NCBI GenBank assembly: GCA_010405405.1
Contig: MU004237.1
Location: 2,305,345-2,369,344 of the forward strand
Reading direction: 5' to 3'
Source of the DNA: Microthyrium microscopicum
Lineage: Eukaryota
DNA: 64,000 bases
The notes beneath the pieces are model-generated. The model made no database searches. It saw only the letters and a program-made list of their open reading frames with translations, and was not told the DNA's origin. Both the position numbers and the translations under genes were made by a program. Shown in pieces: positions 18,202 through 57,400 of this stretch. Numbering within the stretch: the stretch's first letter is position 1; every line of letters begins with the position of its first letter.

Positions 18202-19331
18202 ATGGCGCCGTAAGTTATTTCTTATGCTTATGGATTGTTGCTGAAAAGTTTAGACCCTCAATTCCTTCAAAGTCTGCTGCAAGCCAGCGAACGGTCTCCG
18301 ATAACAAGTATCGTGTAACCCGACGACCAATACCAGGACGCCTCGATCATATCAAAACAGAGGTATGTTGTATTCCCTGACATAAAGCAGTATATTGAAT
18401 TAGTACTTTCCCTGTCGTCACAATAAGCAAGCTCTTGGGATGTATCTTCCTATCAACTACAGTGTCTACCATGGACTGCGAACATTATTGGCCGCTCTGT
18501 TTGCCATTTTTCGCGAAGGCTATCAAACACGATAGGAGCCATGCCTTTGTCTATTTTCACGTGTCTTAACATACGTTGTAGTTGATGGGAGTGGCGCCCA
18601 AATACTCCTCTATTCTGACACGAAAGTAGCATTGCAACACTCGCGATGGTTACCTACCTACCTGGTAAACAGTCACTAACATCGTTTAGGTGGTCAAAGT
18701 CTTAGTCGGCAAGTCTGAGGAGGCTTTCATGGTGCACATCGGGCACTTGATCTCAACGTCCGATTTCTTCAAGGCAATGCTTCGAAGCGGAGCCAACTTC
18801 AAAGAAAACAACGAGTCCACCATCAAGCTTCCGGAATGTCTGCCCGAGACTTTTAGTCTATATGTCGAGTTCATCTATGCCGGCCAAATTTCGATGGACA
18901 AGACACTGGACGTTACTAGCCAATATTGGCCTCTGACAAGACTTATACGCCTAGCCGACTACATCCAGAGCGTTGAGCTTTACAACGTGGCTATTGATGC
19001 GTTTATCGATGTTTGCAAAGATACGAACAAGAGTCCGCCTTTGACGGTGGTTCAGACAGCCTACGACGATCTTCAAAGTGATTCTTCGTTCATTCAACTT
19101 TTGGTTGACATGACTGCCAACAGCAATTGCTATGCCGAGAAGGACGTTCCGACCGCTATGATGGACTCGAAGAATCTAGGAGTGTTTTGGTTTCGGGTTG
19201 CTCAGGCAATGAAGAAAACAGAAGCAACCCCGGGAGATGCAGAGAATGGTCGAGGTTCATTTGGAAACCACAAAACTCGCTATCATCGTCAGAAGATCCC
19301 AACAGCACAGGAGGCGAACAAAAGCGATTAA
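18202..19331 (+). CDS. BTB/POZ-domain protein copy 3 (3 exons)
   Basis: ATGGCGCC|gtaagt micro-exon; VVKVLVGKSEEAFMVHIGHLISTSDFFKAML..FKENNESTIKLPECLPETFSLYVEFIYAG. Confidence 0.88.
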
Positions 19332-20152
19332 GCTTCACCGGAGTGCAGGATCCGGGAAGTGCAAAACGTCTTCTGCCCCTGTTATCCAACCCAACGGACT
19401 GATTTCACGTCCTCTTGTGTTGCAAACCTGGACTGCTAGAGGTGGGATATTCCCCACTATTTAATAGGTAATTTCAAAGAATGCCAAGTTGACAATTTTC
19501 TTCTGGGATTGAAAATGCAGGATTTTGTGCTCAAGTCAACTACATGTGCGTGTAGCTATCAATTAGAAGATTCACGTTAATCATGATGTCGACATAGATT
19601 TTGGAAGTTGACGCCAGCCCAGAGTGCGTACTCGAGCCATCAGGCTGAACCTCAGCCTTGTGACGCCATCCGAAACATAGCTGGCCGACGCCTTCCAGCT
19701 TTGCTGAATCCCATTTGACACACTCAGTGACTGAGTATTCTTTTCCCTATCAATAGCAATTTTCATAGATATTTGATCTAGCGAGATGGCAAAACAGGTA
19801 GGCTATTGTTAAATCTTGCGGTGGCAGCCAACGTCCCAGATGGGAGGTGGCGAGATCCTCGCCTGAAATAATGAGTGGCTCGCTCCTTCCTAAATGCCTT
19901 GTGGGTCATCTCGATCGTACTTCCCTAAATAGGCAACTGAGCGCACTAGTCGCTCAATGTCGAACAAATTTCGCCTTTTCAACCTCAGAAGGTTCCAGCA
20001 CCTGGAAACTTCATCAATTGTCGTGTCTGTATTTTGGCTTCTTCAACTCCTTTCCCTACCATCTATGTCGTGACCTCCGGCGTTTTCTCTCCCTACCATC
20101 TGACTCGCTGGTCTCCAACGTATCTTCCTACAATATCAGCACCGTCCGAAAA

Positions 20153-21058
20153 ATGGCACCGTGAGCATCCCAAGTTCCCAACCATTCCCAATTGACCAGA
20201 ATTAAGAAATCTTAGGCCCTCCACCCCCTCAAGGACTACCGCAACCAAGACTTCTACTACGGAAAAGAAGTATCGAATAACCCGACGACCTCTGGCAGAG
20301 CGCCCAAAAGTTGGGACACAGGTTAGTCTAAATCCTCATGGGCTTGGAGAATGCACTCGATGGGCCTACGCAACAATCCTGGGAACCACGACACTCTATA
20401 GGCTGACACGATCTAGGCGATTAAGATTCTGGTGGGCGAGAAGGAAGAGCCGTTCCTTGTACACTTGGGCCATCTACGGTCCACATCTGATTTCTTCCAA
20501 CGCGCCTTACGGGTTGGAGCGACCTTCAAAGAAAACAACGAGTCTATTCTCAGACTTTCACAATTTGCCCCAGAGACGTTTAGCTTGTATGTCGAGTACA
20601 TCTACACCGGCGAGCTTTCCATAGAGTCCGATGACCGCAAGCAAGAACAAACCACCATAGCCAAACTCGTTGTTCTCGCTGATTATCTACAATCTACTGA
20701 ACTTCACAACGTCGCCGTAGATGCGTTCGTCAACCGTCAAAGCCCCTATCTAGGACCGACGTCACTCGCAGCCGTAAAAATAGCTCGCGACGGATTGCGA
20801 CCCGATTCTCCTTTCATGCGATTGTTAGTTGACATGTGGATATGGAGAGATTTTGCCCCACGCGAAACAGAAGTCATAGACAGATTGTCAGAAGGCCTAG
20901 GTGCATTTTGGTTCAAGGTTGCTCAAGGCAAGAACCGGTTCATGAAATCTGGAAGCTGGGACAAGAAGGATTATCCATGGGTCGTGGACAAGAGCCAGTA
21001 TTACTGCGAGAAGGTTGACGAGAACGTCGAGACAAGCCAAGAACACCGGATACAGTGA
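20153..21058 (+). CDS. BTB/POZ-domain protein copy 4 (3 exons)
   Basis: ATGGCACC|gtgagc micro-exon; AIKILVGEKEEPFLVHLGHLRSTSDFFQRAL..FKENNESILRL..PETFSLYVEYIYTG. Confidence 0.88.
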
Positions 21059-21412
21059 AAAGTAACTGATATGCCGGGGACCACTCTGGTACATGGAACG
21101 AATCAAGAACGTGGATGGCGAGAAGTTGAGAACGAAGTCTTCTAGTTGAGAGCGAATACAATGGCAAAAACAATGTCTGCCCTGTTGTTGATGAGAGCAT
21201 GCCATTTTCCACTGCAAAGCATATCCTGTTCAAGACGTTAGAATATTGGTATAGTAGTGCTGTTACCTGCATCCTGAATGTCTCCAAGATACCCCTCACC
21301 CTTTTCCGACCAGAGTAACAAGTAGCTCACCTCCTCACTTCAAGTCTCCAACGTATCAAGATCCGTCCACACACTACTGGCACCTTTGTCAAACTTCACA
21401 AGCCACCTCAAG

Positions 21413-22310
21413 ATGGCACCGTAAGTTCATTCCATACTTCTGAAGCTGTGTTCTAACTGCCCTCTAAAGCACATTCGCACCAAAGACCGAAAAGAAGTGC
21501 CCCGAACCTGACAAATGCACCAATGTCAGCGCCATTCGAAAGTGGAACTCAAAACGACCCTCTCGCTTCACATCCAATGTCGTCAAAGTTCTCGTGGGCG
21601 AAAACGAAGAAGCCTTCACAGTGCATGAGGGACACCTAACTTCGACATCGGATCTTTTCCACCGAATGCTACACGGAGGAGGAGCAGAATTCAAAGAGCG
21701 CATAGAGGGAGTCGTCAAGCTTCCTGAATGCAGCCCTGAGACCTTCAGCCAGTATATGGAGTATCTCTACTTTGGCCACTTATTTACAAACACGACTGAA
21801 GACAAGCTTCATTACGCTGAACACATGCACGGAGAGATGTTCAACGATGTGGTCGCCGATGAATCTAACAAAGAATACGCAATGCTATGTGAGCTCATTG
21901 CCTTTGGGGATTATGTGCAGGATGATGACCTCTACAACGCAGCTATTGAAGCGTTCATCGACGTTCATAATGTTTGGGGCGGAATACCAAAGCCTGCAAT
22001 CGTCACGACAGCTTACCAGAAGCTAGAGGCCGGGTCTTCATTCATCCGACTCCTACAAGATATATATGTCGACGATCGGGTGATGGACGCCATGTTTGCC
22101 GTGAACAACTACACTGAAGATAATGTGCCTCCAAATCTGGCTGGGTTCTGGTTCAATGTGGCCCTGAAAAGAACTAAATACATGGATTCGAGTAATCCTC
22201 GTACTTGTCCATGGAAGAAAGACAGTTGCCAATATCACCGGCATAAGGATGCGGAAAAATGCGAGGCTAAAGTCAACGAAAACGAAATCTCTGGAGTGAT
22301 CAAGACTTGA
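21413..22310 (+). CDS. BTB/POZ-domain protein copy 5 (2 exons)
   Basis: ATGGCACC|gtaagt micro-exon; FTSNVVKVLVGENEEAFTVHEGHLTSTSDLF..FKERIEGVVKLPECSPETFSQYMEYLYFG..CQYHRH. Confidence 0.88.
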
Positions 22311-26680: not shown

Positions 26681-27190
26681 TGTGCTATGGCGTGACGAGT
26701 CCGGAGTAGGGTCTTTGGTGCCGCAGTTTGAATGTCATTAGACCTATGGCTTGAAGAATTTTGACGATGGTTGTAGATGAGTTGAAGTCGTGGTGTTGAA
26801 GCTGTTTCAACTATCTCGTCAAGGCGTCTGCAACGACGTAACGCTTCTGATTGGGCCGAGGCAAACGCGACTTGAACTTTATCCCAACCACTTTTCTCAA
26901 CTTTCTTCCCCCTTCATTAACGCTGATATAATTCATAAAAGCTTGATATAGCATCGGTTTCGTATCTCATGGCGCTTCGTGTCTTCATGTTCAGTCGAGA
27001 TGCGGCGATAAGCGCTCAAACCCCTCATTGACCGATTTAGCTCGGGTACTCAAAAGCGGAGCATTGGTTTTGAAGTTGTCAAGATTGCTGACATGATTCA
27101 ATTTCATTTCCTTGAAATGGCGCATCATTCTTCGCGTCTAAACTTTTGACTTGTATTCATCACTGGACGCGCTCCATTTTACTGAACACT

Positions 27191-29061
27191 ATGCCATCCA
27201 ATCGGCCCATTCGCATCGCATCATGCTCCGGTTCTGCCTCTGATCGACGCCATGGCATGTATTCTCTGGCATCAAACTATCAAAATGATCCCGTCGAAGT
27301 CATTATGGGCGACTGGATGTCGGAAGCGAACATGACCTCAAGAGCATGGACCAAGACATTCAATGATGGTGATTCTTACGAGCCTACGTTTCTGGAAAGT
27401 CTAGTTCCTTCTCTACTACTCATCGCCAAGCACAAGATCAAGGTTATTACCAATGCTGGTGCAACGGACACGCAAAAGTTGTACCACGTGGTTGGGGATC
27501 TGGTCAGGAAGCAGAGCCTAGATTTGAAAGTTTGCTGGGTCTCTGGTGACGAGGTGCTGTCGCAAGTTCTGGAGTTACAACAGAGTGGCGAATCTTCATT
27601 TAAGAATGTTTATACTGGGGAAGCTTTGCAAGATTGGAAATTCAAGCCCATCTACGCTCAAGCATACCTCGGAGGTATGGGGATATCAACTGCCTTGCAA
27701 CATGGCGCAGACATCGTAATTTGTGGTCGAGTCTCCGATGCCTCACCAGTGATAGGAGCAGCACACTGGTGGCACTCTTGGAATAGATCTGATCTGAAAT
27801 TCTTGGCCAACGCTTTTGTGGCTGGTCATCTAATCGAGTGTAGTACGTATATTACAGGCGGCAATTTTACTGGCTTCAGATCCTTCGAAAAGAGCGGCTG
27901 GGAAGACATTGGATTTCCTATAGCTGAGATATCCAAGACCGGAGAAGTGATTATTACCAAACAGAAGAACACAGGAGGTTTAGTGTCGAGAGATACGTGC
28001 ACATCACAACTTCTTTACGAGATTCAAGGACCATGGTACTTCAACTCAGATGTCACTGCCATCTTGGATGGTATCTGGTTTGAAGAGCTGGATAAAGACA
28101 GAGTTGCTCTACACGGCGTAAAAGGAGATCTACCTCCATCCACCACCAAAGTTGGCATTACAGCAGATGGCGGCTATCAAGCAGAGTTTCACTGGTTTCT
28201 TGTCGGACTGAACATCGAGGACAAAGCCCGAATGATCGAGACGCAAATTAGGAAAATCCTTGCACCTCAAAGCAAGGACTTTACTCTTCTTCATTTCCAA
28301 ACTTATGGCTCCGCCGCTGAGAACCCCATCAACCAGCCATCTGCCACTGTAGATCTTCGAATCTTTGTCCAGGCTCGTAAAGAAGCTTCCCTTTCCCCTC
28401 AAAACTTCCTGAGGCCATGTTTGGACGTTATCATGCAAGCTTATCCCGGAGCGACACCGCATCTTGACTTTCGTCAAGGCTTTCCGAAGCAGGTATTCGA
28501 GTATTATGTAACGCTATTACCTCAGTCAGCCGTGGATCATAAAGTGCATCTACATACAGGAGAAGTTATCCGGATACCGCCACCACCCAAGTCGAAAACA
28601 TGGCCTCATACTCAACCAAGCACACCAACGACACAGTTTCCGATATTACTGGATAGCTTTGGCCCAACAGAAACCGCACCCTTGGGCACTTTGGTACATG
28701 CTCGAAGCGGCGATAAAGGCAGTGACGCCAATGTTGGATTTTGGGTCCGTTCAGATGAAGAATTCGAATGGCTTCGAACACTTCTTTCTGTCGATACAAT
28801 AAAGAAACTGTTGGCTGATGAGTACAACGGTAAAGAAATCGTGAGTGCGTCTGCTCTGGAACTACGATGAAATCTAATGTAATTTAGGACCGATTCGAGC
28901 TACCAAAGGCCAGGGCCGTACACTTTTTGCTTCATGATCATCTGGATCGGGGTGTTAGCTGTACAAGTTCTTACGACTTTCTTGGAAAGAATGTGGCAGA
29001 GTTTCTTCGTGCGAGACATGTTGAGATTCCTGTCAAGTTTCTTTATCAGCCGAAGCTTTGA
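27191..29061 (+). CDS. DUF1446 / acyclic terpene utilisation AtuA-like protein
   Basis: IMGDWMSEANM, AYLGGMGI..GADIVICGRVSDASP, AGHLIEC, QLLYEIQGPWYFNSDV, HARSGDKGSDANVG; one 3' intron. Confidence 0.9.
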
Positions 29062-38989: not shown

Positions 38990-40396
38990 ATGCCTGAAGT
39001 AAGCTCTCATTTAACAAATATTCTATTGACCCTGCTAATAAACCTCCCAACAGATTGGCGAGGTCCATCGGCTCGTTCACTTCCTTCGACGGCATGTCAT
39101 CAACCGCAAAATCGTCAAAATTCACACACAAGAAGATACCATCGTCTACGGCAAAGTAGGGTGCTCCGCCAGCCAGTTTCAATCATCACTAGTCAACAAG
39201 ACCGTCGTCGATGTCAAACAGCAAGGGAAATATTTCTGGCTGGTTATGGGCTCCCCGCCGCATCCATTGATGCATCTTGGAATGACTGGATGGATCGTCT
39301 TTTCCAACGATGACACGGCTTACTATCGACCGAAGACGGAAGAGACAGTTTGGCCGCCAAAGTTCTGGAAATTCAGACTGGTTATGGAAGGCAAGCCAGA
39401 ATGCGAGGTTGCTTTCGTGGATCCAAGACGGTTAGGCCGCATACGCTTGGTGGATGTTGCTGCCGACAAGATGCGACTCACGGCACCGTTGAGTGAAAAT
39501 GGGCCTGATCCGGTTGTCGACAAGGATGTCTTCACGAAGGAGTGGTTCAGGGAGAAGATCAAAAGCAAAAGAGTACCTATCAAAGCGCTGTTGTTGGATC
39601 AACACAACATCAGCGGTATTGGAAACTGGGTCGCGTAAGTACCCACACTTTGATTACTCTACTTGCAAATCACTAACGTATTCGAAGTGATGAAGTGATG
39701 TATCAATCTCGAACTCATCCAGAGCAATACAGCAACACTTTCAGCGACGAACAGGCCGACCGGATACATGATAAGATTGTTGAGGTTTGCGGCATTGCCT
39801 GCGATACACTCGCAGATTCGGAACAATTTCCTGAGAATTGGATGATGCGGCATCGGTGGGGCCAAGGCAAAAAGAATGCCAACACTCTGCCTAATGGAGA
39901 GAAAATGGTCTTCATCAAGGTCGGTGGACGGACGTCAGCCGTTGTTCCAAGTGTTCAAAAGAAGACTGGTGCTGTCGCGGGGGACATTACCGAGGAGACA
40001 ATCACCGGTGACGAAGACGGTGCAACACCCGCAAAGGGTCGCAAGAAAGCGGCCAAAACGAAGAAGGCCCTGAAAGATGATGACGAAGAAGAAGAAAACA
40101 CCAAAACACCAGTAAAGGCTCGCAAGAAAGCCACCAAGCCCACAAAAGACGTCGGAAAGGAGGATGACAGCGCAGGCGAAAGCGAGGAGGAACAGGTCAA
40201 GCCCAAGTCTCGGAAAAAGGCTATGAAAGCATCTGCCAAAGCGAAAGACGAAGTAGTCAACAAAATTTCAGCATCATCACGGAGCAAGCGCAAGACCATC
40301 GGTGGTGACGGATCAGACATAAAAGCGAAAAAGATTAAAGCTGAGAAACCCGCTCCTGCTGAAGGTACTAGGCGATCATCACGGCGCAGTACGTAG
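38990..40396 (+). CDS. fpg: Formamidopyrimidine-DNA glycosylase (Fpg/MutM, fungal type) with Lys-rich tail
   Basis: MPE|IGEV catalytic N-terminus, QQGKYFW, MHLGMTGW, FVDPRRLGRIRL, H2TH motif PIKALLLDQ..ISGIGNWVA/DE. Confidence 0.92.
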
Positions 40397-42352: not shown

Positions 42353-44418
42353 TCAAATAGCTTCCAACAAATGTTTTGCAGCGGTAGCCTTTTTACGCTT
42401 TTGAGTTTGCTCCTCTCCTTTCGCATCCTTGTCCAAGCTTTCGCCCTCCTTCATGATCTTCTTGAGCTCGGAAGCAGAGGCCTTCACAGACTTCTTGACA
42501 ACTGAAACTCTCTTCTCATCCTTCCATTGAGCTTCAAGAAGAGCGAGAACGACGAAGATTCCGTCTCCAGTAACCCAGCTGGACAACTGTGGTTCGATGA
42601 CATCCAACAATGTATCAGCAAAGTGCAAGGGTGGATCCAGAGGAATAACCTTCTCGGCTTTTGTATCGTAAGGACCTCCCTGTATAAGCAGCTTGAGCGT
42701 TTTGGCGGCAAATGGTGAATGAGAGATGTGCGATTCCTCACTAAGATCTCCTTGACATAGATCAGCTATAGCTTTGCAGGCCGCAGCTTTGTCGCCTAAT
42801 CCCGCAATGAAAATTTCAGAGATGAAAGGACAGCCAAATCGGTTTATAAGGTCGTCTGGACGGGTCTCAATTGTGTGCATACAGAGTGGCGACAGTTGTT
42901 CGACTAGTTCGCTGCGTCTCACAGATTCATCTTTCTTCGATGTTGTTGATCTGATATCTTGAATCTTCTTCATGAAGTTCGCAACATCTGGATAAAGTAA
43001 ACGGCCCGAGGGGCCCATGAATGGGTACAGTAACGAAGCGCGACCGATCTGGTTGGTAGCCAAATTGATGATTTTGTGGTCTTGATCGTCTGCCGTAGCT
43101 GTCTTTGTCAACAGCACCAGCTCGTTGTAGACGCGCACTTTGATCTCTCGTGTATCATCCAGGACTTCAAAAGCAGTAAGAAGAACTTGATGGCCATGTT
43201 TGTCAAATGCAAGCATCTCATACACATCCTTGTAAGCTTTGAGAATTTGACGACGTTGTTTCGCATTTCCATAAGCGAGAGCATAACAAACCACCTGAGA
43301 GCCCGACGACGTGAATGCTAGATTTTTCAAAAGATCGGCTTCCTCTTCGTTGTTATCACCAATGACTAGGTTGAGGAAAGCTGTGAAATCTTCACTCTCA
43401 GGAGAAATGTTAAGGAAGTATTCGAGCATAGCATCATGCAGAATCGTAAATCCCGTCATTTTCTTTTGTACGAGTTGATTGATTCGTTCATGAAGGTATT
43501 GGAGGATGGGTGTTCTTTTCTCCGGTGAGGCCTTTAAGATTGTGGAGAGATCAGCCGAAACTTTGGTGGGCTCTGCAGATTTGAAGACAGCAAATTCAGG
43601 GCCGTAAAACTCGCGTAGCATAATTGCCTTTTGACTTTTGGACGCAACTGATCGATACATGTCGTCGAGAATCCAAGAGGCCTCTGGATCGTTAATGAGG
43701 CGGCGGATATGGCCATAAAATTCGGGAATGATCATGGCTTTGGTTTCGTTATCGCCTTCGGTGATGATCTTGGCCAGTAAGAACTTGGCATATTTGCTCT
43801 TGGCTAGTTCAATGTAAGTCCCCTTTAGTTCTCTAGCGATTTCCTTCTTTCGAGCGATGGTGGAGTATTTGACGGCACATTGAATGATTCGGACACTGTC
43901 GTGCTTGAAGACAAAATCGTGCACTCGTCCAGTGATGATTTCAAACAATTCGGTGAGAAGCTTTTGCCGTTCGTCTTTCTGAACATGAGACTTCAACCGC
44001 AATCTCTCCCACAGCTTCTTGGCTCGTGCAATCTCGTCGGCGTTTGGTTTGGCAGCTTTGCGGGCAGCAGCCTGTTCCTTTTGCTTCTTGTGGGACTCTC
44101 GAGATTTGTTTGGATCTAGAAAGTGTCAGTCCAGTGCTTCAGACTGCAGATAGTAGAGTAAATAGAAATCATACCATCTTGTCCATTGGCGGGTGCATCT
44201 TCCCGCTTTTTGTGTGATTGAACGGGTATGGCCTTGTCTTGTTCATCATCAAAGCCTTCAAAGTCGCTGGTGTCGTCGGAGATGTCTTTGCGGAGCGGGG
44301 CGGTACTTGGAGTGAACGTTTTCTTTGGCGCAGGATTGGCAGTCTTTTGTTTCTTGAAATTCTGGTTCTTCGAAGCTGGGGCAAAGGATTGCGACTTTCT
44401 CTTCTCGGGTAGAGCCAT
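42353..44418 (-). CDS. PUF6: Pumilio/CPL-domain ribosome-biogenesis protein Puf6
   Basis: AKKLWERLR, FVFKHDSVRIIQCAVKY, ELAKSKYAKFL, EASWILDDMYR, KMTGFTILHDAMLEY; intron at 44116-44174. Confidence 0.9.
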
Positions 44419-44533
44419 GATAATGGGTGGATGTAGAGAGTTTGGAGTTTGGTGGAAAGATGGAAATATTTCTTTGGATCCAAAATTTCGAGTTGGAAAA
44501 ATATTGAAAACAAAAATGGTGAGGGGAGACATA

Positions 44534-44629
44534 TATGACGGCGCATTATCGCCAACACCGCTCAAGATAAGAACTTCTAAACTTCTAAACTTCTAAACAC
44601 GTTATTATATTACTATATTAATGACGTTA
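44534..44629 (+). repeat. Left terminal inverted repeat (3x acttctaa internal units)
   Basis: Reverse complement of 55742-55845 with few mismatches. Confidence 0.93.
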
Positions 44630-45131
44630 CCCTATTACTATATTACTATATTATCCTTTAATCTCTAGAGCTCTAGGTTATTAATTATAGATAATTATAA
44701 TTCTACCTTACTACTTAGAAGTTATTATATTTATATTAGGATATATCTTTTTAATAAGTTAGTATAGTTATATATATATTATATAATAATTAGTAAAAAG
44801 TATAAAGTATAAAGTATATAAATAATTACTAAATATAAGTTTATATTACTATTTAATAAATAGGTATATATATATATATCTACCTAAACTAATTAAGTAT
44901 TTATCTCTTTCCTAAAATTATTCTTTATACTTTTTACTTTATTATCTTATTTATAATAAAATACTAGGCCTTACTTCTATTAATTTAGAGTTCTATTAAG
45001 ATAAAATTAAAAATCTTATTATAAGATAGTTTTTTACTTATTTAAAAGTTATATATTAGCTAAAAGAAAACTATAATATTAACGTTACGCTAAGTATACT
45101 ATATTAAAAGATTAAGTAATAAAAGATCTAA

Positions 45132-46756
45132 TGCCTTATAGCTTTTCTATTAGAGCGCTATAAAAAGCTTAAAGAAATAATAAAATTCTTATTTTATAAT
45201 AAGAATAATAATAAAGATAAAATACTCTTTACTCTTTAAATTATAGAATATTTAATAACTATATAAACTCTCTAGTATTATTAGTAAAAGCTTACTCTTA
45301 AATGCTACTATAAGTTTACGTTAGATAAAGATTTTATAATAGCTTACTACTAAGATAAAGTAATAGTTTTAGTTAAGCTTTATAAAGCTTATTTATTAGT
45401 GTCATTATATAGCTATTAAGCTCTAGCTACTAGACTTTATAAATATAAATACCTAATTCTAGAGGCCTAGATTAATTAAATTTAATAAGATTTAGATCCT
45501 ATTAATATATAAGCTTACTAGAGATAAAAATATTAAAAACGTAGTAAATATAGGACTAAAGGCCTAAACTATATCTAATTAATTAATAAGTATAATAAAC
45601 TTAAAAAAGTAAGAATTAAAATTTATAGCTATATTAATACCTACTTATAAAATATAATCTAGTATTATGTTAGTATATTAAATACTATAAGTATAAGTTA
45701 TTTATATTAGTACTTAGATTAGTTAACTATTAATCTTATAATCCTTTAGTTTATTTACTTAGATTAAGAAGGTAAAACTATAATACTTACTAACGCTTAT
45801 TATAAGTTTATAAAGGCTCTAAAGTATAGAATTTCTTTCTTAGATTATTATCTATATAAGACTAGTATTATAAATTAAAGGATTAAGTACTAATAAAAAA
45901 GCCTTAATAGATTAGCATTAACTAAATAGTAAGTAAGTTATATAACTATATATACTTAAGAGTTAGTACTAATATAATAACTTACTAAATATTCTTTAAT
46001 AAGCTAGTTAACAAAGGTTCTTATTTAAAAAATAAACTTAAAGACTAAATTATAATACTAGCTATTTATCTTCTTATTCTACGACGTATAGTAAAGGAAT
46101 TTATTAATAACTAGAATAATTATAAGATTATTAATAATAAAAAAAAATAACTATACGTAGTAAATAGTAAACCTTAGTATCTATATACTTTTCTTTAAAG
46201 AGCATAAAATATAAGCCTAGTTATTAATCTAGTAGTATTTTAGGCTAAGAAAGTAGTAGTAGGAAACTAGAATAAGAACGCTTTTTTACTATTTAATATA
46301 CTTTAATAGTATAATAAAAAGCTAGATATAATAAAATTTAATCCTAATAGTAACCCCTTTAAAATAAAAAAGGATTAGCATAACCTAATAAATCTATATC
46401 TTAGTTACTATCTCTACTTATAAAAAATAATTAGTTATTATATAGTATTAAGTAATACCCTAATTTTAGCTACTCTTAAAAATTCTTAAAGTAATAAAGC
46501 TTAAATTAGAGATTACTTAAACTACCTTATAGTTTAGGAGATATAAAGGGCTATAAATAAAGATAATAGAGATAATAATATTATAAAGTTTTAGGCTATT
46601 ATAGAATATATAGGACTTAGCTATTTTAATAATAATTAATTAAAGGATAATTCTAATATTAATTTAGCTAAAAAAGAGGAAATTTAAGCTAATAATATAA
46701 AAAGTAAGGATAATATAAAAGAGGAGCTTTAGTTTATATTTAGGCGTTCTAATTAA
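45132..46756 (+). pseudogene. RIP-inactivated DDE integrase/transposase (rve-like core); ends approximate
   Basis: Literal frame reads KGLNYI*LINKYNKLKKVRIKIYSYINTYL*NII*YYVSILN..FIYLD*EGKTIILTNAY..KTSIIN*RIKY**KSL..EFINN*NNYKI. Reversing C>T/G>A gives GPNYIWSIDGHDKL..GIEIYGCIDAYSR.IIW.YVGISN / SDxxGET..LA.AH / GTS..NQRIE.WW / F...WN.H.I. Confidence 0.82.
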
Positions 46757-47105
46757 TAATAATAATTTATAATAATTTTATATACTTTAACTACTTTTTA
46801 AAACCTTATTATACTAGTAAAGCTTAATACTATAAGGTATATTATTAGATAAATAGTATATTTCCTTTATATTAAGTAGTTAAAGATTTCTAAGTCTCTT
46901 AAGTTTCTTAAATCTCTTAAATCTCTTAAGTCTCTTAAAAAGGATAATATAGACGTTACTTAAATTTTTAGTTTTTTTCTTTATTCTTAATAGTATTAAT
47001 AATAGAGTAAGGGCTTATAGTAGCATTAGGCTTAGTACTCTTAAGTACTTATCTTATTATTATAAATAGCGTATAAATTAATTATAATTAAGTAACTAAA
47101 ATATA

Positions 47106-48893
47106 ATGCCTAAAGTATTAGGCGCTTATAAGCATATTTTCTAAAAGAGTTATTCTTATGCCTTTAGTTATATCTATTAATTTATAAAAGCCTAGGTAAA
47201 GATAAATAAAAGATAATCTAAGGCCTTATATATTATTACTATTAGTACTATATATAATTAAAAACCTAGATAATATAATTAAGGTTTCTAACTCTAAAAC
47301 GCTACTATAATTATAGTAATATATTAAATAAGAGCTTTTCCTTATTAAGATAAAAGAATATAATAATATTCTATTATAAAATCTAAGTAATAAAAGAACT
47401 CTAAATAATTTTATTAAGATATAATATAGTTAGAGAAGCTACTAGAACTATATAAGATATAGATTAATAAATACTATAGCAAAGCTAAATTTTATTATAT
47501 AAAAGATTTAATAAGGCGTATTAGTAATTCCTAAAAAAAAAGGTATAAGATTCTATTAAGATATAAGTATAAAAACTTACCTTAGTTTAGTTCCTAAAAT
47601 AACCTTAGTATAAATAGAATAGAAAGTAAAAATTTATTTTTATATTATTAACTATAAGACGTAGGGTAACTATATATAATTTAACTTTATTAAAGAATAT
47701 TATAAGTAGCTTAGTTATTAAGGTAGCTTATATTAATGTATATAATAACTTTAGTAAATATAGACCTTTTTTAAAGTAACGTTAAGAGTATTTAAGACTT
47801 TATTTATAAATACTTAACTCCTTATTTAGATAATATAGTACTTACTAACTATAATAAAGTCTTTACTTATAATAGAGGTATTTAAAACGTTAAACTTGCT
47901 AGTAAAATTAAACTAAGTAAAAGACCTATAGATTACGTATTTTTAAAGAATAAGAAGAGTAAGACTTTAGGCTTTTCTTTAAAATAAGGAGAGCCTCTTA
48001 AGATTAGCCTTATTAATAGAATATATAACGTTATTAAGCTAGCTAGCATTACTATAAGTAAGTTTATTAAAAGAGCTATCTTTAATATTAATAAAAAGAA
48101 TTAACTATAAATCTACTTAATTATATATAAGTATTAAGAAATTATTCTAGACTCTAATTCTAATATGCCTATCTTATTAGTACCTACCTTAAAGACTTTA
48201 AAAATACTTACTCTAAAGACTCTAAAGATATACTAATAGCTACTCTTAAAATAAACCTTTTTAAAACTTAGGTTAAATAAAGTTATTAAAGCTAATCTAG
48301 GTACTTAGGTAAAGCTTAAGAAAATTAAGCTTAATATAGACGTCCTTAAGAAAATAAAAGCTACTATACTAGAAGCTAAGCAAATTATAAAGAATTTATA
48401 AATAGTAAAGAATCTAATAAAAAATAAAAGTAAATAAGACTCTAAGTTTACTATAAATAATAAAGATAATAGCCTTAGTAATAAGAAAAAAGCTATAGCT
48501 AGTAGTAAAAATAATAATTCTAATGCCTTATTATTATTACTAAGAATATTATTTTAGTAACTAAGAGAGAAAAAAGCTACTAAAAAAGAGAAAAAAGCTA
48601 CTATTACTAAGTAAGAAAAGAAAACTACTAAATAAGATATATAAAAGTAAGCTATATTCTAAGTTAAGCTATTAAAAAATAGTATATTTACTTATATTTC
48701 TTAATCTTATAAAGTAATACTTACTTTAATAAATAAATAAGTAGCTATAGCTATTAAAGTAGATATTCTTAAGGCAACTAAGGCTAACGTAATAATAAAG
48801 AAATATAAAGGGCGTAGAGAAAAGAATATAAAATATAAATATAAAGATAAAAAGCAAAGTAGCACTACTTAGTTACGTTAAAAGGCTATTTAG
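47106..48893 (+). pseudogene. Second RIP-degraded ORF relic of the transposon (charged/coiled-coil C-terminus), function unknown
   Basis: Purine-rich codon-like periodicity on the + strand, e.g. ..gagaaaaaagctactaaaaaagagaaaaaagctact.. (EKKAAEKERKAA-like after de-RIP). Boundaries are approximate. Confidence 0.4.
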
Positions 48894-51800
48894 ATATCTT
48901 TACTTATTTAATACTTATTATAATTTTATTATACTTATTTTACTCTTTTCTTTACTAATTCTTAAATAATTAAGGTAGTATTAACTTACTAATAATTACT
49001 TAATAAATACTTTCTTTATAAACTTAGTAAAAGTTCTATATATAATAAATATAATGCTATCTTAATTTAGTAAAGAAGCTAATAAAACCTATAACTAGTA
49101 CTAGCCTATTATTTCTAACTCTATTACTAAAGTTACTAATCTAAAAAGAATATATTAAATACTTAATTAAAAAGTAAAAAGTAAGTATAGAAAACTTACT
49201 AGGGTTTCCTCCTAATAGTAACGCTATAATTAGGATTAAGCTATATTTAGTAAGTAGATCCTACGCTAAGTCTACTAAACTATAAGTTACTTATAACTTA
49301 ACTAAACTTTAATAAACTCTAGTTTCTTAAAATAATTATTCCTTAAAGTTAACTAAGTAATCTTTTATTAAGCTTTAAGTATTACGTTCTTTATATATAA
49401 ACCTTAAACTTAAATAAAACTAAATCTTAGAAAAGGCTAATACTTTTCCTAAAATAGAACTAACTAATCTAATAATATATTCTTATATAGGTACTATATA
49501 TATACTATAAAAGAATAAGTAACTAGCTTATTAAACTATTATGCTCCTTCTTTATTCTACTAAACTAATACTTTTATAATACTTAAGTAGTTTATTAATT
49601 TATAAGTTAAACCTAAATAAATATTAGTAAGTATAATAATTAATATAATTTATTAAATAGAAGTTATAAAACATAGTATAGAAAACTACTATATAAAGAT
49701 AAAATAGTTAAAAAATAAGCTTAAGGAATTTATATAATATTACTATAAATACTACTAGAATTAGAACTACTAATTAAAAATTAAATTAATTAAAAGTAGT
49801 ACTAAATTATAAATCTAGAAGCTAGGGAAATTATTAGTTAAGTATTAATATATTTCTATAAAAAATTAATTATATTTCTATCTAATACTATTAATTACTT
49901 ACTAAAAAATATAATAATAGTTATTAAGCTCTAACTCTAATTCTAATAAACTTTCTTAGGCTATTAGTCTATAGAGAAGTTATAGTCTTATTTAAAGTAG
50001 ATATAATATTAGTTAGTAAAAAATAACTTAAGAAGGATTAATAAAGTTAATTATTAAGCTACTAGGTACTTAAGGATAAGAATAGTAGGCTTTTTAATAT
50101 CTAAACTATATCCTTTTAAGACTCTCTAATTAGGAGTAACTCTATTTTTTCTCTTATACGTAATATAGTTATTTATATCTTTATTATTAAATTTATAATA
50201 GCGTTCTAACTACTTCTTACTATTATATTTATAAAGAGGGTAGCCTTTATTAAAGTTAACTTCTTAAACTAATTACTTATTCTCTCCTTATTCTATCTTT
50301 ACTCTATTTATCTTTTTTAAAGCTCTTAAAGATATATTAATTTTTTTAGCGTTATTTAAAATATAAATAAGCTAGTAATACTCTCTTTATTTAGTACTAT
50401 TTATCTAAATAAAGCTTACCTTAGCTTTACTTATACTTTTAAGAATTCTTCTTATTTACTTTTACCTTTTAGAAGATTTAAGTTACTAAACTTAACTAAT
50501 AAGCCTATTATATTACTATTACAATCTATATATATCTTTATCTTCTCTATTTTTAAACATACTCTAAAAATATCTAACTTCTCTTTACTATTTATATAGT
50601 GCTAAAGGTCCTTATAAAAAAGCGTTAGGTAAGATTCTTTAATTTAATATTATATTATATTAATTTATATTTAGTTATTAGTATTAAGGACTTAATTAAA
50701 TCTATAACCTTTAGAGTAAATATTATTAAGATAATATATAAGACAAAATAAAGCTTATAAATTCTTAGCTACTCCCTAATAAACTAAGAAAGTAGCTAGA
50801 AACGTATAAACTTTATTTATTTTAAAGACTTTTTAGCTAAATACTTCTATATTAGAATATTTTATAAAGTAGTAACTTTAACTATAAAGTAAGATTTAGA
50901 GAAAGTTATACCTATATTAACTTATAATTTTAATCTACTCTTTATTCTAGATAATATACTACTAAAAAGTATATTATACTAAAAGAGGGTTAAATTTAAC
51001 TTATATATACTACTCTTAGTATTTTTAAGTTTTTATTTTTTAATATTAGACCCTAACTACCTTTTAAATAAACTAAGAAAATAATTAAGGTCTAATATAG
51101 CTTTAAAGAAGCTAATGCCTATCTAAATTAGGATTTTTATTAGTTTAATATTAAGTTAGCATTCTTTTTAATAGTAAAAAGAAATAAATAAATTTTTACT
51201 TATTAGTTATCTTATTACTAATATATATTTCTTTTATATAAAGTATTACTTTAATTAATAATATAGTAGATAAAGATTTAGTACTTTATTAGTATATATA
51301 TAATAAAGTCCTTAGTAAAAATATACTATTATATTAGATATAACTATCTTTCTAAAAAGAAGTACTACTAGCTATACTTTAATTAATACTTATAATATAT
51401 ACCTAAGTTTATAATTAGCTTTAACCTATTAATATAATATTATCTCTATAAATAGAAGACTTTCTAAAAAGATAAAAAAACTAAATATATAATAAGTATC
51501 TAGAGTAGATAAAGTAATATACTTACTTTACTATTCTAAGTATAGTAATAATAAGTAAAAGTAAATATATTAAAAAATAACTACTAAAATAAATAGAGAT
51601 ACTAAAAGTAATCTCTACTATTTTAAAGTAAATTAATAGATAATAAAATAAATTTAGAATTTATCTAAAGTATATATTATAGGCTTAAATCTAGTAAAGA
51701 ATAGTCTATAATACGCTTTTTATATTTTTATTTCTATTAGTTATAATATATAAAATATAAGCTTACTATTCTATACCTTTAGATATTTTAAATAAACTCT

Positions 51801-53868
51801 TAGTTTATTCTTAAAGTTATTAATTATTATTAAGTAATAAAGTAGATAAATATATAAGCTCTATAAGTTAAAAATTTAACTACTTAGATTTTATAATATC
51901 TCTTTATAAATAAGCATAATAACTAGTTAGTAATTACTATAGCTAGTAATATATTTTTAGATATTAGCTAACTTTAAGCTACTTTTTTACTACTTAATTA
52001 TTTAGTATTTAGATATATACTATAGTTATTACTTTTACTTACTAGAGATTAGTACTTTTTAACTTAAGGAGAATGCTACTTAAATAAAAATATTTAGAAG
52101 TAGTTAACTAGTCTATCTCTATATATTAATAAACTAATAATAATATTTATTAATATCTATTTACGTTATCTAGTATATATTAATAGAAAGTATATTCTTA
52201 TCTTTCTTATAATATATTATTAATTATATACTAAATAATAAAGTTTCTCTATTTTTTTAAAGACTTCTATATCTATATTCTTTTAATAATAATATTTACT
52301 ACTTTAGATTAATAATATATACTAAGATTTCTATCTAAGGAAAAATTAAATATATTTAAAGTATAACTACTAGCTAATAAATAATATAGTTAAATTACCT
52401 TAATAAGGCTATCTAAAGTCTTTATCTAATAAACTTAACTTTCTTAGAAAAAATATATACTTTATACTAAAGTAAAGAGTATAACCTTTATTATACGTTA
52501 GGGCTAATATATTAGATATACCTATTAATACTAAATTAAGGTAAAATTACTTTTTATAAATAAGAATACTCTTAGTAAAATTAAAAGCTTATAGTTTATA
52601 TAGGTTAATAATCCTATAACCTACTTATACTATTTATATTATTTCTAATATAGTGCTTATACTTCTTAAGGATATAGAGTAGTATATAGAATTATCTCTA
52701 TATATAATAATAATAAGGTTATAATAATATTAGAAAGTCTTTAGAGAGCCTAGTTTAAATAAAAATTATAGTAGAAAATTATAATAGTTAGCTTTAGTTT
52801 TTAGGCTTTACCTTCCTTTTAATTACTAACTTACTAATATTTAGTTTAAATAGTATTTAAATAATATGCTAGTTTTTAACTAACTTTTCTCTATATTATA
52901 AAATATAAGCTTCTTTAATATATAGAATAACCTAATTGCTATACCCTAGACTAGAGTATAACTACTATATAAGTATAATAAGTTATATAAAACTATAGCC
53001 TTAGAAGAGTATTATTAGTAAAATAGGTAAAGAAAGAATAAGATTAGACTTAAAAGGTATACTAGAATTACTCTATTATAACTAGTAAGCTTATCTATAA
53101 TATAAAATCTCTAAATAAGAAAGTAATTAGTTATTATTAATAAGCCTACTATAGATAGTAGTCTATAGTAGGCTATAACTAATAAAGAGTAGTAATATTA
53201 TTTATATCTTATATATAGTATCTTTAAGTAGTAAGTAGTTATAGTATTTAGTATAACTAAAATACTAATTAATTAATAGTTAAAAACTACCTATATTACT
53301 ATAAATTAACTTAGCGTAATATAATATATTAATATAAAATATATTAATATTAAAGATATTAAGACTTTTTTTTAAAAGAAAAAAATTAATATAAAAAATA
53401 CCTTATTATTTTAATCTTCTCTAAAAAGCGTATTAAAAAAAAGTAACTAATAAAGTATAATAAGATATTTCTAATAATAAATACTAAAATATAAATAGTT
53501 ATAAAGATTATTATAATATTATTACCTTAAAAGAGTCCTAATATTAATTAAGATCTATTAAGATACCTTTATAGTAATTTTACTAAGTATTAGTATAAAT
53601 ATACTACTTAATAAGCTTTATTATAGAAAGCTTTGCTTACCTAAGTAATACGTAGTATTAAATAATACTACTTAGTAATAGAAAAGCTTTATAGCTATCC
53701 TAGCTAGTTAATATTTATATATCTAGAAAACTAGATTAGGTTATAAAAATAGGTTAAACTAATAATCTCTATTAGTTTTAGCTACCTTAAAGCTAAGTAA
53801 TTATTAAATAGTACTTTAAAAAGTAACTATAAGTTATTCTTTTTGTTTTACTAAAATAAATATATATA

Positions 53869-53932
53869 ATAAGTAAAATAATATCTTAATCCCTTATATA
53901 ATAAGTAAAATAATATCTTAATCCCTTATATA
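53869..53932. repeat. Perfect 2x 32-bp tandem duplication inside the transposon
   Basis: ataagtaaaataatatcttaatcccttatata repeated twice. Confidence 0.9.
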
Positions 53933-55741
53933 AGGTATCTCTTTATAAAGGATAGATATCTTAATATATTTTAATAAGTTATTTATAAAGTATACGCTAT
54001 AAATAAAATACTAAGTATTTTACTATAAGGTATCTTACTATATATATTCTCTTAAGTAATCTTTAAGAAGAAATAGTATAGTAGGCTTTATAATTAATTT
54101 TATATATATAGAAGTATACTATATTAGAAAGTATAGAATTAAGAGTAAAGAGAGCTTTTTAACTAAGAAGGCTTACTTTATAATAGTAGAACGTTATTCC
54201 TAAAGTAATACTTACTACTAAATTATTATAGTAAGACTACGTAAGTATAAAACTACTATATAGTATAAGCTTAAATAATTACTATAAATTCTATATAATT
54301 TTAAGTTATATAAATTTTTTTAGATAATTATAAATAATATTTTTTCCTTTTTTTATAAAATAGCTAAAAAAAAATTATTTTTCTACTAACCTAGCTCTTA
54401 ATATAGCTATAAAGAAACTTAATAAGACTTAGATACGTATACTACTTACTATATAAACTAGCTTAGCGCTACTTAGATATAATAGCTAGATTAAAGTTAT
54501 AATTTCTCTCTTACTTAATACTAAAAAATCTTACTTTACTAAACCTTTTCTATTATAATTTTATTACCTAATTATATTAGTTATACTTAATTTAATAAGA
54601 AAAGATAAACTTATATATAATTTAGCTCTATAAAATTATTATATAGTAGTGTTAATTATCTTAGTACTAATTTTATACTATTTTTTTACTTTTTTTATAT
54701 TCTTATAGATATAGTATTCTATAATAATAAGCTAGCTCCTTAGATATTTAAGTATAAATATATTTTATAAAATAATTAGTATTTATAAAGAATACTTACG
54801 CCTCTAGCGTTAGTAGTTTTACTAATTAATAAGCTAAATAATATATATAATAATTTAGTACGTAAGCTAAGGAATATAAACCTACTAAAACGTAACTTTA
54901 CCTTATATAATATAAATAGAGAAGTCTAAAATACTCTATATTAACGTCTTAAAGCTTATATAATTATATTAAAAGCTAGAAATTACTTTTAAGGATATAA
55001 ATTAGTAGTAAAGAAGTATTAGAAAATATTATAGCTAAAGGAATAGAAGTTTTTAGTAACTTAGACTTACTAAAAGTTAGTAAAGTAGTTATAAGTAAAA
55101 AGGACAACGTATTAAAATAATATTATTTAGTAAAGGATTATATCCTCTTTACTATTAAGATATAATGCTTAACCTAAAAAGATAATATATAAAGAAATAA
55201 CCTAAGAACCTATAAAAGAAATAACGCCTTAAAAAGAATATTATAGCTAAGGCTTACCTATAAGCTAATTTAGTAAGAAACTATTATTACTAAGCTTTAC
55301 TAAACTTTACTATAGTTATAAATTTATAATCTTACTTTTATCCTTTTAAGGAAGAAGCTTTATAATACTTATTCTAATTAAAACCCTTAGGTAGTATTAT
55401 TTTATTTATTAAAGCTATTTTAGGAAAGATATTATAAGTATAGTTCTCCTAAAGAATATTTCTTTATTAAATTTAATAAGCTTCTCTATAAACTAATATC
55501 TTTACTTATAATATATCTCTATAACTATACTAAAATCTATATATAGCTTACTAGACTCTTTTATATAAGCTATAGTATTATATAAGAGTACTACCTTACT
55601 AAATATTAGTAACCTTATTATAAATAAAGATAATTTCTATTACTAAAATATAAAAAATAATTATTACTAAAAATACTATTTAGAGATAACCTTAACTAAG
55701 AGTAGAGTAGAATAAATATTAGAATTATTATTAATAAGGGC

Positions 55742-55845
55742 TAACGTTGCTAATATAGTAATATAGTAACGTGTTTAGAAGTTTAGAAGTTTAGAAGTTT
55801 AGAAGTTCTTATCTTGAGCGGTGTTGGCGGTAATGCGCCGTCATA
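55742..55845 (-). repeat. Right terminal inverted repeat (4x ttagaagt internal units)
   Basis: Reverse complement of 44534-44629 plus one extra 8-mer. Confidence 0.93.
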
Positions 55846-56121
55846 GACATATGATTAGTCAAACATTTTTGATAGCCACGATCCACGAGCCACAGTCGCG
55901 ATTTCCCATTTCAGCCACTTCAATATTGACTCCATCATCGCATCTTGATCAACACATTTTCCTTGTGACATCTTCCCACCTTACAACATTGACCCTCCAC
56001 TATCTACTATCCTCACGCTTGCCCTTCAACGAACTCTGTCCTTATTCGTACTCATTAACCTGTCCGTCAGATCGCGTTGCTCAGATGACAATATGATATC
56101 GCTGCCAGCTCTCTAGCCATC

Positions 56122-57400
56122 ATGGACGGTGTTGACGCGACTGTTCGCGGCTCTGTGAGAACTTCTTCTGGTGATTCTATCTAATATGACATTTGTTCGT
56201 GTGCTGACATTGTAGTGAAGCTGCTCCACCCTCTCTCCTAACCATAATACTCGATACGAATCCTCTCTCGTGGTCTCATTTATCATCCTCCTTGCCACTC
56301 TCCGCCGTCCTCAAAACACTGCTCATCTTCGTCAATGCCCACCTTGCCATAAATCACGCAAATCAAGTCGCCGTTCTAGCTAGTCATGTCGATAATGTAG
56401 CTTGGTTATACCCTACACCAGATGACGGAGATGCCTCGAAGCAATCTTCTCAGACAAATGGACATACGGAGGTAGCAGATGAGCATAGGGTGGTTAGCAA
56501 CAAATACCGACCCTTCTTGACCATAGAAAAAAACATAAGCAAGAATCTGCGGAATCTACTTACATCAGACATACCATCTGCCGAAGCTCTCAAGTCTCCT
56601 CCACTACTCGCCGGCGCTCTATCCATCGCCCTGGCATACGCCAACCTTCAGCTATTAAAAGCGGACCCAATGACCAGCGATAGTGCATCAACTGGTACGG
56701 GAGCCGTCGGTGCTGCTGATTTGGACGCACATACTTCCGCGCTGCGAACCGCTAGATCAGGTCATCAATTCGTCAGTCGAATATTGATCGTCAGCGTATC
56801 ACAGGCGGACTTGTCGAGTCAGTATATTGGACTGATGAACTCTGTATTCGCAGCTCAGCGACTGAACATACCACTTGACGTTCTTCGTATAGGCGAACGC
56901 ACTGCATTTCTTCAACAAGCAAGCGATGCTACATCTGGAGTCTACCTAACCTATGATCCTCCAAACTCGACAGCGAATGGTACAAATGGGGCAGCTACAG
57001 CGAGCTTTAGTTCCGCTACTGCAGGACTGCTTCAAACCTTGATGCAGGGGTACTTTTCGGATGTCGCAGCACGAAAATTGCTTGTCATGCCTGGGTCCGC
57101 CGAAGTCGACTTTCGTGCCGCCTGCTTTTGTCATGGCAAGATTGTAGACTTGGGAGGTGTTTGCTCTGTATGCTTGAGCAGTAAGATAACCTCCTGCAAC
57201 AAATATCGAGTTTTTTCTAATGCGATCTAGTTTTCTGCCTTCCACTGGAATTTACCTCGTGTCCGACTTGTCAATCCCCTCTGAGAGTACCCAAGTCAGT
57301 GACAACCAAACCCGTCGCCTTTGCGAGAAGAAAGAAGAAGAAGAGAAAGATTGGCGACGGCGGACGAGATTCTGCGGCTGGGACTCCTGTTCCCAATTGA
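56122..57400 (+). CDS. TFB4: TFIIH subunit Tfb4/p34 (3 exons)
   Basis: PSLLTIILDTNP..W, LLIFVNAHLA, SRILIVS, QYIGLMNSVFAAQR, FLQQASDATSGVY, VDFRAACFCH..VCSVCLS/IFC..CPTC zinc finger. Confidence 0.93.

Follow-up and report, generated by a model that had tools for sequence, protein, structure and literature searches.

A structurally complete, RIP-saturated giant transposon of probable IS3EU affinity in Microthyrium microscopicum

A stretch of 64,000 nucleotides from the Dothideomycete Microthyrium microscopicum (assembly GCA_010405405.1, contig MU004237.1, positions 2,305,345 to 2,369,344 of the forward strand; hereafter the window, numbered from its first letter) contains a long block of AT-rich DNA, and the question is what this block is: one transposon, a nest of several, or a compositional island. 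GC content per kb is 0.16–0.21 across 45–55 kb compared with 0.44–0.58 in the rest of the window, and no stop-to-stop open reading frame (ORF) of at least 100 aa lies between 44596 and 56208. We find that a single transposon insertion accounts for the block, and that its two ends and the target-site duplication (TSD) are preserved. The element occupies 44534–55845 (no strand assigned), is 11,312 bp long with a GC content of 0.192 as opposed to 44–51% outside, and is saturated with repeat-induced point mutation (RIP). We regard it as one copy, complete in structure, of a large cut-and-paste (class II) transposon bounded by terminal inverted repeats (TIRs), for which the IS3EU superfamily is the most probable home, with chances a little better than even.

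Ends of the element and the pattern of RIP

Two ungapped inverted arms, 44534–44620 and 55759–55845, are 87 nt long and 90% complementary. The left arm begins TATGACGGCGCATTA and the right arm finishes GCGCCGTCATA. A gapped alignment extends the left TIR to 100 nt (44534–44633, plus strand, start TATGACGG) and the right TIR to 108 nt (55738–55845, minus strand, end CCGTCATA), with 7 mismatches (6 transitions and 1 transversion) and one 8-column gap. The identity of this ~100-bp inverted repeat is 93%, and the outer ~50 bp of each arm are free of RIP mutation. A 38-nt TIR tip matches only two sites in the window, and at least two matches were obtained in 0 of 100 dinucleotide-preserving shuffles. 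Since the TIRs coincide with the composition boundary and are flanked by an exact direct repeat, and since the tip is confined to the two ends, the block arose by a single insertion event.

The sole indel between the arms is a difference in the copy number of subterminal 8-mer arrays. Tandem-repeat analysis found 3.4 copies of AACTTCTA within the left TIR (44572–44598, plus strand) and 4.4 copies, one unit more, on the right (55773–55807, minus strand; GTTTAGAA on the plus strand). The extra AACTTCTA unit in the right arm produces a second inverted-repeat register. On the left, the 8-mer array gives way to a degenerate array of TTACTATA (6.4 copies with 71% matches), and the arrays span 44572–44653 on that side and 55739–55807 on the other. 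The 8-mer arrays could be transposase-binding repeats.

The hexamer GACATA, read directly, stands on both sides of the element, at 44528–44533 and 55846–55851. The longest flanking direct repeat is the 8-bp AGACATAT (44527–44534 and 55845–55852), which reaches one base into each TIR; the TSD can therefore be read as 6, 7 or 8 bp long. An earlier note on this DNA had described an ORF-free AT island bounded by ~100-bp inverted termini with an exact GACATA on both sides, and the measurements above agree with it. Its alternative parse, with ATG.. termini and AGACATAT as an 8-bp TSD, can be read as well, and its description of the ends was correct. The note had also called the 11.3-kb element intact, which holds for both ends and the TSD but not for the interior.

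The interior carries an extreme RIP signature. TpA/ApT is 1.62 inside the element and 0.65 in the flanks, while (CpA+TpG)/(ApC+GpT) is 0.063 inside compared with 1.31–1.36 in the flanks; the customary cut-offs are 0.89 and 1.03, respectively. A high first index and a low second one relative to non-repeated DNA define RIP-mutated sequence, and the element shows both. When CpA+TpG was counted in 50-bp bins from each end inward, the numbers were 5, 2 and then 0 everywhere, symmetrically at the two ends, and the outermost 50 bp of each end retain 44–46% GC. The flanks keep 6–11 CpA+TpG per 50-bp bin with no leakage of RIP into either. RIP acts on duplicated DNA, and the family would thus have had at least two copies. 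The taper over the last 50–100 bp marks the exact limits of the repeated unit and shows that, for RIP, this unit stopped at the TIR tips. Ten other susceptible CpA/TpG sites survive in the two TIR tips, an argument for an original terminal TA as opposed to a CA converted by RIP. RIP-mutated transposon blocks are commonplace in Dothideomycetes and likewise show an extreme TpA/ApT excess, CpA+TpG depletion, ~19% GC and sharp borders. The present block differs in that it consists of one element, whose two ends and TSD are preserved, in place of a mosaic of fragments.

The region was also searched against itself after recoding to purines and pyrimidines, a comparison blind to transitions and hence to RIP. 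At W=80 and at least 88% identity, this comparison, which does not see fragments of long interspersed nuclear elements (LINEs), solo pieces or short-TIR elements, returned 0 direct repeats and no inverted repeats other than the TIRs. An ordinary repeat search of the element gave direct repeats of at most 43 nt, one 32-bp tandem aside. Since there are no long internal repeats even when transitions are ignored, the interior is unlikely to contain an intact long terminal repeat (LTR) element or a further element with long TIRs. An LTR retrotransposon, either nested or accounting for the whole block, was rejected for want of a pair of long direct terminal repeats by either search. The 32-bp tandem duplication (53863–53933, 2.2 copies, 100% identical) lies within the RIP-mutated interior and probably arose by replication slippage after RIP had stopped acting on this copy.

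Coding relics in the interior

Coding periodicity that survives RIP was sought with two models. The first, a transition-blind dicodon model in purine/pyrimidine code with 24 flank ORFs as its training set, reached a maximum of 43.7 bits on shuffled sequence. The second, a hexamer model with an explicit RIP channel, reached a maximum of 45.0 bits on its null of 100 first-order Markov resamples. The RIP-aware model identified two relics on the plus strand: relic A at 45959–46729 (257 codons, 20 stops) with 49.2 bits, and relic B at 47742–48854 (371 codons, 22 stops) with 92.6 bits. The purine/pyrimidine model returned one segment, 47727–48869 on the plus strand, which corresponds to relic B and scored 81.3 bits; relic A scored 34.4 bits under this model, below its null maximum. 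Relic B has 5.9 stops per 100 codons and relic A 7.8, compared with a six-frame average of 12.2, and both densities fit those of host ORFs subjected to simulated RIP (5.4–5.9 per 100 codons, range 1.4–8.7). Because the RIP-aware scores exceed the null maximum and the stop densities match simulated RIP, the element contains at least two formerly coding stretches, both on the plus strand of its left half, representing either two genes or exons of one. A six-frame scan of stop density was too noisy for frame calls.

Two further plus-strand segments, 49061–50581 and 50578–51075, were considered as genes and rejected, with RIP-aware scores of 22–25 bits, under the null maximum. Between the two relics, at 46886–46939, there is also a 9-bp tandem, TAAGTCTCT, with 5.3 copies and 89% matches; one of its frames reads as repeated SLK.

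Homology was sought with read-through translations in which stops were replaced by X. Pfam searches returned 0 families for six read-throughs of the whole element (E ≤ 1), for twelve 500-aa read-throughs covering 44534–47235 in all six frames (E ≤ 10) and for five candidate segments (E ≤ 10). A phmmer search with 47700–48959, containing relic B, against 1.84 billion representatives gave 0 matches at E ≤ 0.001. For 45902–46801, containing relic A, a word-index search yielded 1,194 candidates, none of them at E ≤ 0.1. A single-sequence AlphaFold2 model of relic B had a mean pLDDT of 48.8 and a pTM of 0.19, too poor for structural comparison. The loss expected from RIP was estimated by simulation: when the 24 flank ORFs were driven to a GC content of 0.17–0.20, they kept 43–48% identity to their ancestors and 34–39% of their BLOSUM62 self-score. 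Since so little of the score is kept, the homology negatives are weak; a typical transposase domain would drop near or under detection. The earlier note had reported a DDE relic near the left end, which found no support in the Pfam, exhaustive phmmer, word-index or fold analyses. It had also called the element multi-gene, a description that comes down to the two statistical coding relics, for which no homologue was found.

Superfamily assignment and competing explanations

The superfamily was judged from the ends and size of the element. One account gives the termini of complete IS3EU families as 'always' TA..TA and their TSD length as 'usually 6 bp' (PMC10045372). For fungal IS3EU, 6-bp TSDs, TIRs longer than 30 bp and TAYGG..CCRTA ends are described, together with a transposase gene, a TET/JBP gene and an alpha-kinase gene in opposite orientation (PMC12730594). 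The published IS3EU and KDZ (Kyakuja-Dileera-Zisupton) consensus sequences were compared with our element by first bases and lengths, read by eye and without alignment. All 27 IS3EU rows of Table S1 of that source start with TAY, 26 with TAYGG and one with TACAG; their lengths are 5,625–13,389 bp, at least 8,069 bp in 26 of the 27, and one family, of 12,049 bp, comes from an ascomycete, Tuber (PMC12730594). The hallmarks of IS3EU that the earlier note had named (TAY..RTA termini, 6-bp TSDs) are thus in print, as is its mention of the multi-ORF Styx element of Zymoseptoria as a relative (PMC8232023, PMC10853768).

Under the reading with maximal TIRs, the termini of our element are TA..TA with a TATG start; under the 8-bp reading they are AT..AT. 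The ends TATGA..TCATA match TAYGG..CCRTA at 4 of 5 positions, and the TIRs are well over 30 bp. The length of 11,312 bp, with two separate coding relics, falls within the published multi-gene fungal range of 5.6–13.4 kb. A flanking 6-bp repeat is present in the one copy examined, but it extends to 8 bp by overlap with the TIRs.

Several points weigh against IS3EU. The fifth base of the element is A, compared with G in 26 of the 27 published fungal families. Flank geometry slightly favours a TSD of 8 bp, because the 6-bp reading needs two coincidences, namely that each flank base beyond the TSD equals the adjacent element end (~1 in 16), whereas the 8-bp reading needs one, that the end bases of the TSD are complementary (~1 in 4). 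The evidence comes from one copy only. No transposase or other domain was recovered by Pfam, phmmer or the word index, so the assignment is drawn from ends and size. Finally, along the right-hand ~4.5 kb the RIP-aware model gives no coding score above the null. The power of this model is poor, with five of six held-out host ORFs scoring 6–27 bits after simulated RIP (the sixth 81) against the null maximum of 45.0; it misses many genes, and little can be read into its silence over these 4.5 kb. When the terminal motif is set against the flank geometry, we lean somewhat towards IS3EU membership and, with it, towards a 6-bp TSD. The IS3EU-type reading of the earlier note therefore stands in part: under a 6-bp TSD the ends, TIR length and size fit, while the enzyme is undetectable and the TSD length ambiguous.

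The closest known systems include the fungal IS3EU families that carry TET/JBP and alpha-kinase genes. The source describes these from rust fungi (IS3EU-n_PGr, _PSt, _PTrit, _PCor, _MLP and _MMed) and places IS3EU-1_TuIn from Tuber indicum in the same group (Kojima 2025, PMC12730594). As far as those descriptions go, our element shares with them TA..TA termini, a TAYG start, TIRs of more than 30 bp, possibly a 6-bp TSD, the length class (5.6–13.4 kb compared with 11.3 kb), apparently more than one gene and, judged by eye, short repeated motifs in a G/C-rich subterminal stretch. It differs in its fifth base (A instead of G), in its Dothideomycete host and in having no rve, TET/JBP or alpha-kinase domain detectable with Pfam. 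Large multi-gene fungal IS3EU families have been published already, and the novelty implied by the earlier note was overstated. The element is at best a new member of this known kind, and at most two things are new, the lineage of its host and a family whose TIRs measure ~100 bp. At the level of listed titles, a literature search on Microthyrium microscopicum turned up two papers that name the species, neither of them concerned with its transposons. Should the IS3EU assignment hold, a host in the Microthyriales would be added to a poorly sampled superfamily whose fungal members are the rust and Tuber families and Styx. The importance of the element is modest. It is a clean, ordinary though tidy case of a complete giant TIR transposon under saturating RIP, and it opens no long-standing question.

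The preference of the flanks for 8 bp leads to a different, rather unlikely explanation, in which the element starts ATGACGG, ends CCGTCAT and is flanked by AGACATAT. It would then belong to a superfamily with 8-bp TSDs, a KDZ giant or, less likely, hAT, P or another group. The longest flanking repeat is indeed 8 bp, and fewer coincidences would be needed. Fungal KDZ elements of the same build are described from Cryptococcus: KDZ1 is 10,944 bp long with an 8-bp TSD and 236-bp TIRs, KDZ2 and KDZ3 are 10,053 and 9,218 bp, and extra ORFs without assigned function are carried (PMC11343200). Zisupton and Dileera are also described with 8-bp TSDs (PMC12730594). These giants, ~9–11 kb in Cryptococcus and with long TIRs (PMC11343200, PMC12730594), resemble our element in size and architecture, and their 8-bp TSD would match. 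However, among the 51 'KDZ' matches in Table S1, the 14 consensus sequences seen all have C or G as their first base (the starts are CAC, CAG, CGG, GAC, GCC or GGG), and none opens with AT or TA; their lengths are 9.8–24.4 kb (PMC12730594). The KDZ examples compared were all from Basidiomycota. Pfam scans found no KDZ (PF18758, CxC zinc module), hAT or Mutator-like element (MULE) domain in the element, which is weak evidence after RIP. Elements of the hAT group have short TIRs that carry YARNG tips, and MULEs make TSDs of 9–11 bp. A MULE or Mutator origin does not fit, as the flanking direct repeat stops at 8 bp.

We give similarly low credence to a composite origin, in which unrelated insertions, nested in a smaller TIR element before RIP or in its course, enlarged the interior, so that neither the size nor the multi-gene content would be a property of one family. 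The two relics are ~1 kb from each other and in different frames, the coding models are silent over the right-hand ~4.5 kb, and RIP-mutated AT blocks often contain insertions nested in older repeats. Against this, the element has no long internal direct or inverted repeats, even in the transition-blind comparison, and its GC content is uniform at 0.16–0.21 per kb. Nesting is also not needed to explain the size, as fungal IS3EU consensus sequences of up to 13.4 kb have been published (PMC12730594).

Less probable still is a derivative, non-autonomous or carrying cargo, that lacked a transposase gene of its own from the start and depended on an autonomous relative, with the relics being captured host-like genes. 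The absence of a transposase signal from the Pfam, phmmer and word-index searches agrees with this, as do the good scores of the relics under a model trained on host genes. However, RIP as simulated above would be expected to take a typical transposase domain to the edge of detection or past it, and a host-trained model picks up any gene with ordinary purine/pyrimidine codon periodicity.

It is comparably doubtful that the element represents a lineage of large multi-gene Microthyriales transposons beyond known IS3EU, being either a Styx-like relative or part of a long-TIR group with AT..AT ends and 8-bp TSDs outside the described superfamilies. Styx (REP9) of Zymoseptoria is described as a 7.9-kb IS3EU relative with four genes, a 6-bp TSD and 36–43-bp TIRs; two of the genes have DUF3716 and one encodes an rve integrase, and RIP-mutated copies occur in sister species (PMC8232023, PMC10853768). 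Our element resembles it in being a TIR element of a Dothideomycete host, and a 6-bp TSD and multi-gene content would be shared features. Compared by description only, the two differ in length (11.3 kb here) and in TIRs (100/108 bp here), and Pfam searches of the read-throughs gave no DUF3716 or rve match, so the features that define Styx were not found. The authors of Styx report no Styx-like element outside Zymoseptoria (PMC10853768). A Styx-like relative here would mean, contrary to that report, that elements of this kind have a long history and a wide distribution among Dothideomycetes.

That the block is no mobile element at all, only an AT-rich isochore bounded by chance by an inverted repeat, is hardly credible: nothing beyond the absence of detectable genes speaks for it, and against it stand the ~100-bp repeat of 93% identity exactly at the composition step, the exact flanking duplication, the tip pair reproduced in none of 100 shuffles and a RIP signature implying that the sequence was repeated in the genome.

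Insertion site, proposed history and neighbouring genes

The element splits a short divergent, bidirectional promoter of two housekeeping genes. On its left, on the minus strand, lies a PUF6-like gene (CPL domain, 6e-32), which likely starts at the first plausible ATG (MALPEKRK...) at 44418, ~116 bp from the element. To the right, the ORF at 56208–57227 is TFB4 (Pfam Tfb4, 7e-79), with 97% overall identity to the Microthyrium microscopicum protein and no differences over most of its length. As this reference protein starts with 14 residues that the ORF lacks, a first exon of TFB4 would be placed between the element and 56208. TFB4 coding sequence is reached within ~360 bp of the right edge of the element (55852–56208). 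With 11.3 kb of AT-rich DNA inside the promoter, the locus is a possible case for studying effects of insertion on the expression of neighbouring genes.

The following history, reconstructed from sequence, would account for the locus. A transposase, presumably of the DDE type, would have bound the ~100-bp inverted ends, with the 8-mer arrays as candidate binding sites. A staggered cut in the short promoter between the PUF6-like gene and TFB4 would have allowed the element to insert, with duplication of GACATA. Once the family was present in more than one copy, RIP would have converted nearly all CpA/TpG and most other C/G along the repeated length, halting ~50–100 bp short of each end and wrecking all reading frames. 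This copy cannot move on its own. Its intact TIR tips could in principle still be mobilised in trans by an active relative of the element.

The remainder of the window contains ordinary genes and no transposon domains, and a tRNA scan of the whole window gave 0 genes. Three consecutive plus-strand ORFs at 18690–22307 each encode a BTB/POZ domain (E from 3e-07 to 8e-09), which suggests a small tandem gene cluster. At 39042–40393, an Fpg/Nei-type DNA glycosylase, with a Fapy_DNA_glyco N-terminal domain and H2TH, extends over two ORFs and is presumably split by an intron. A strong match to the AtuA (acyclic terpene utilisation) family (E 1e-168) lies at 27116–28867; this family is better known from bacteria.

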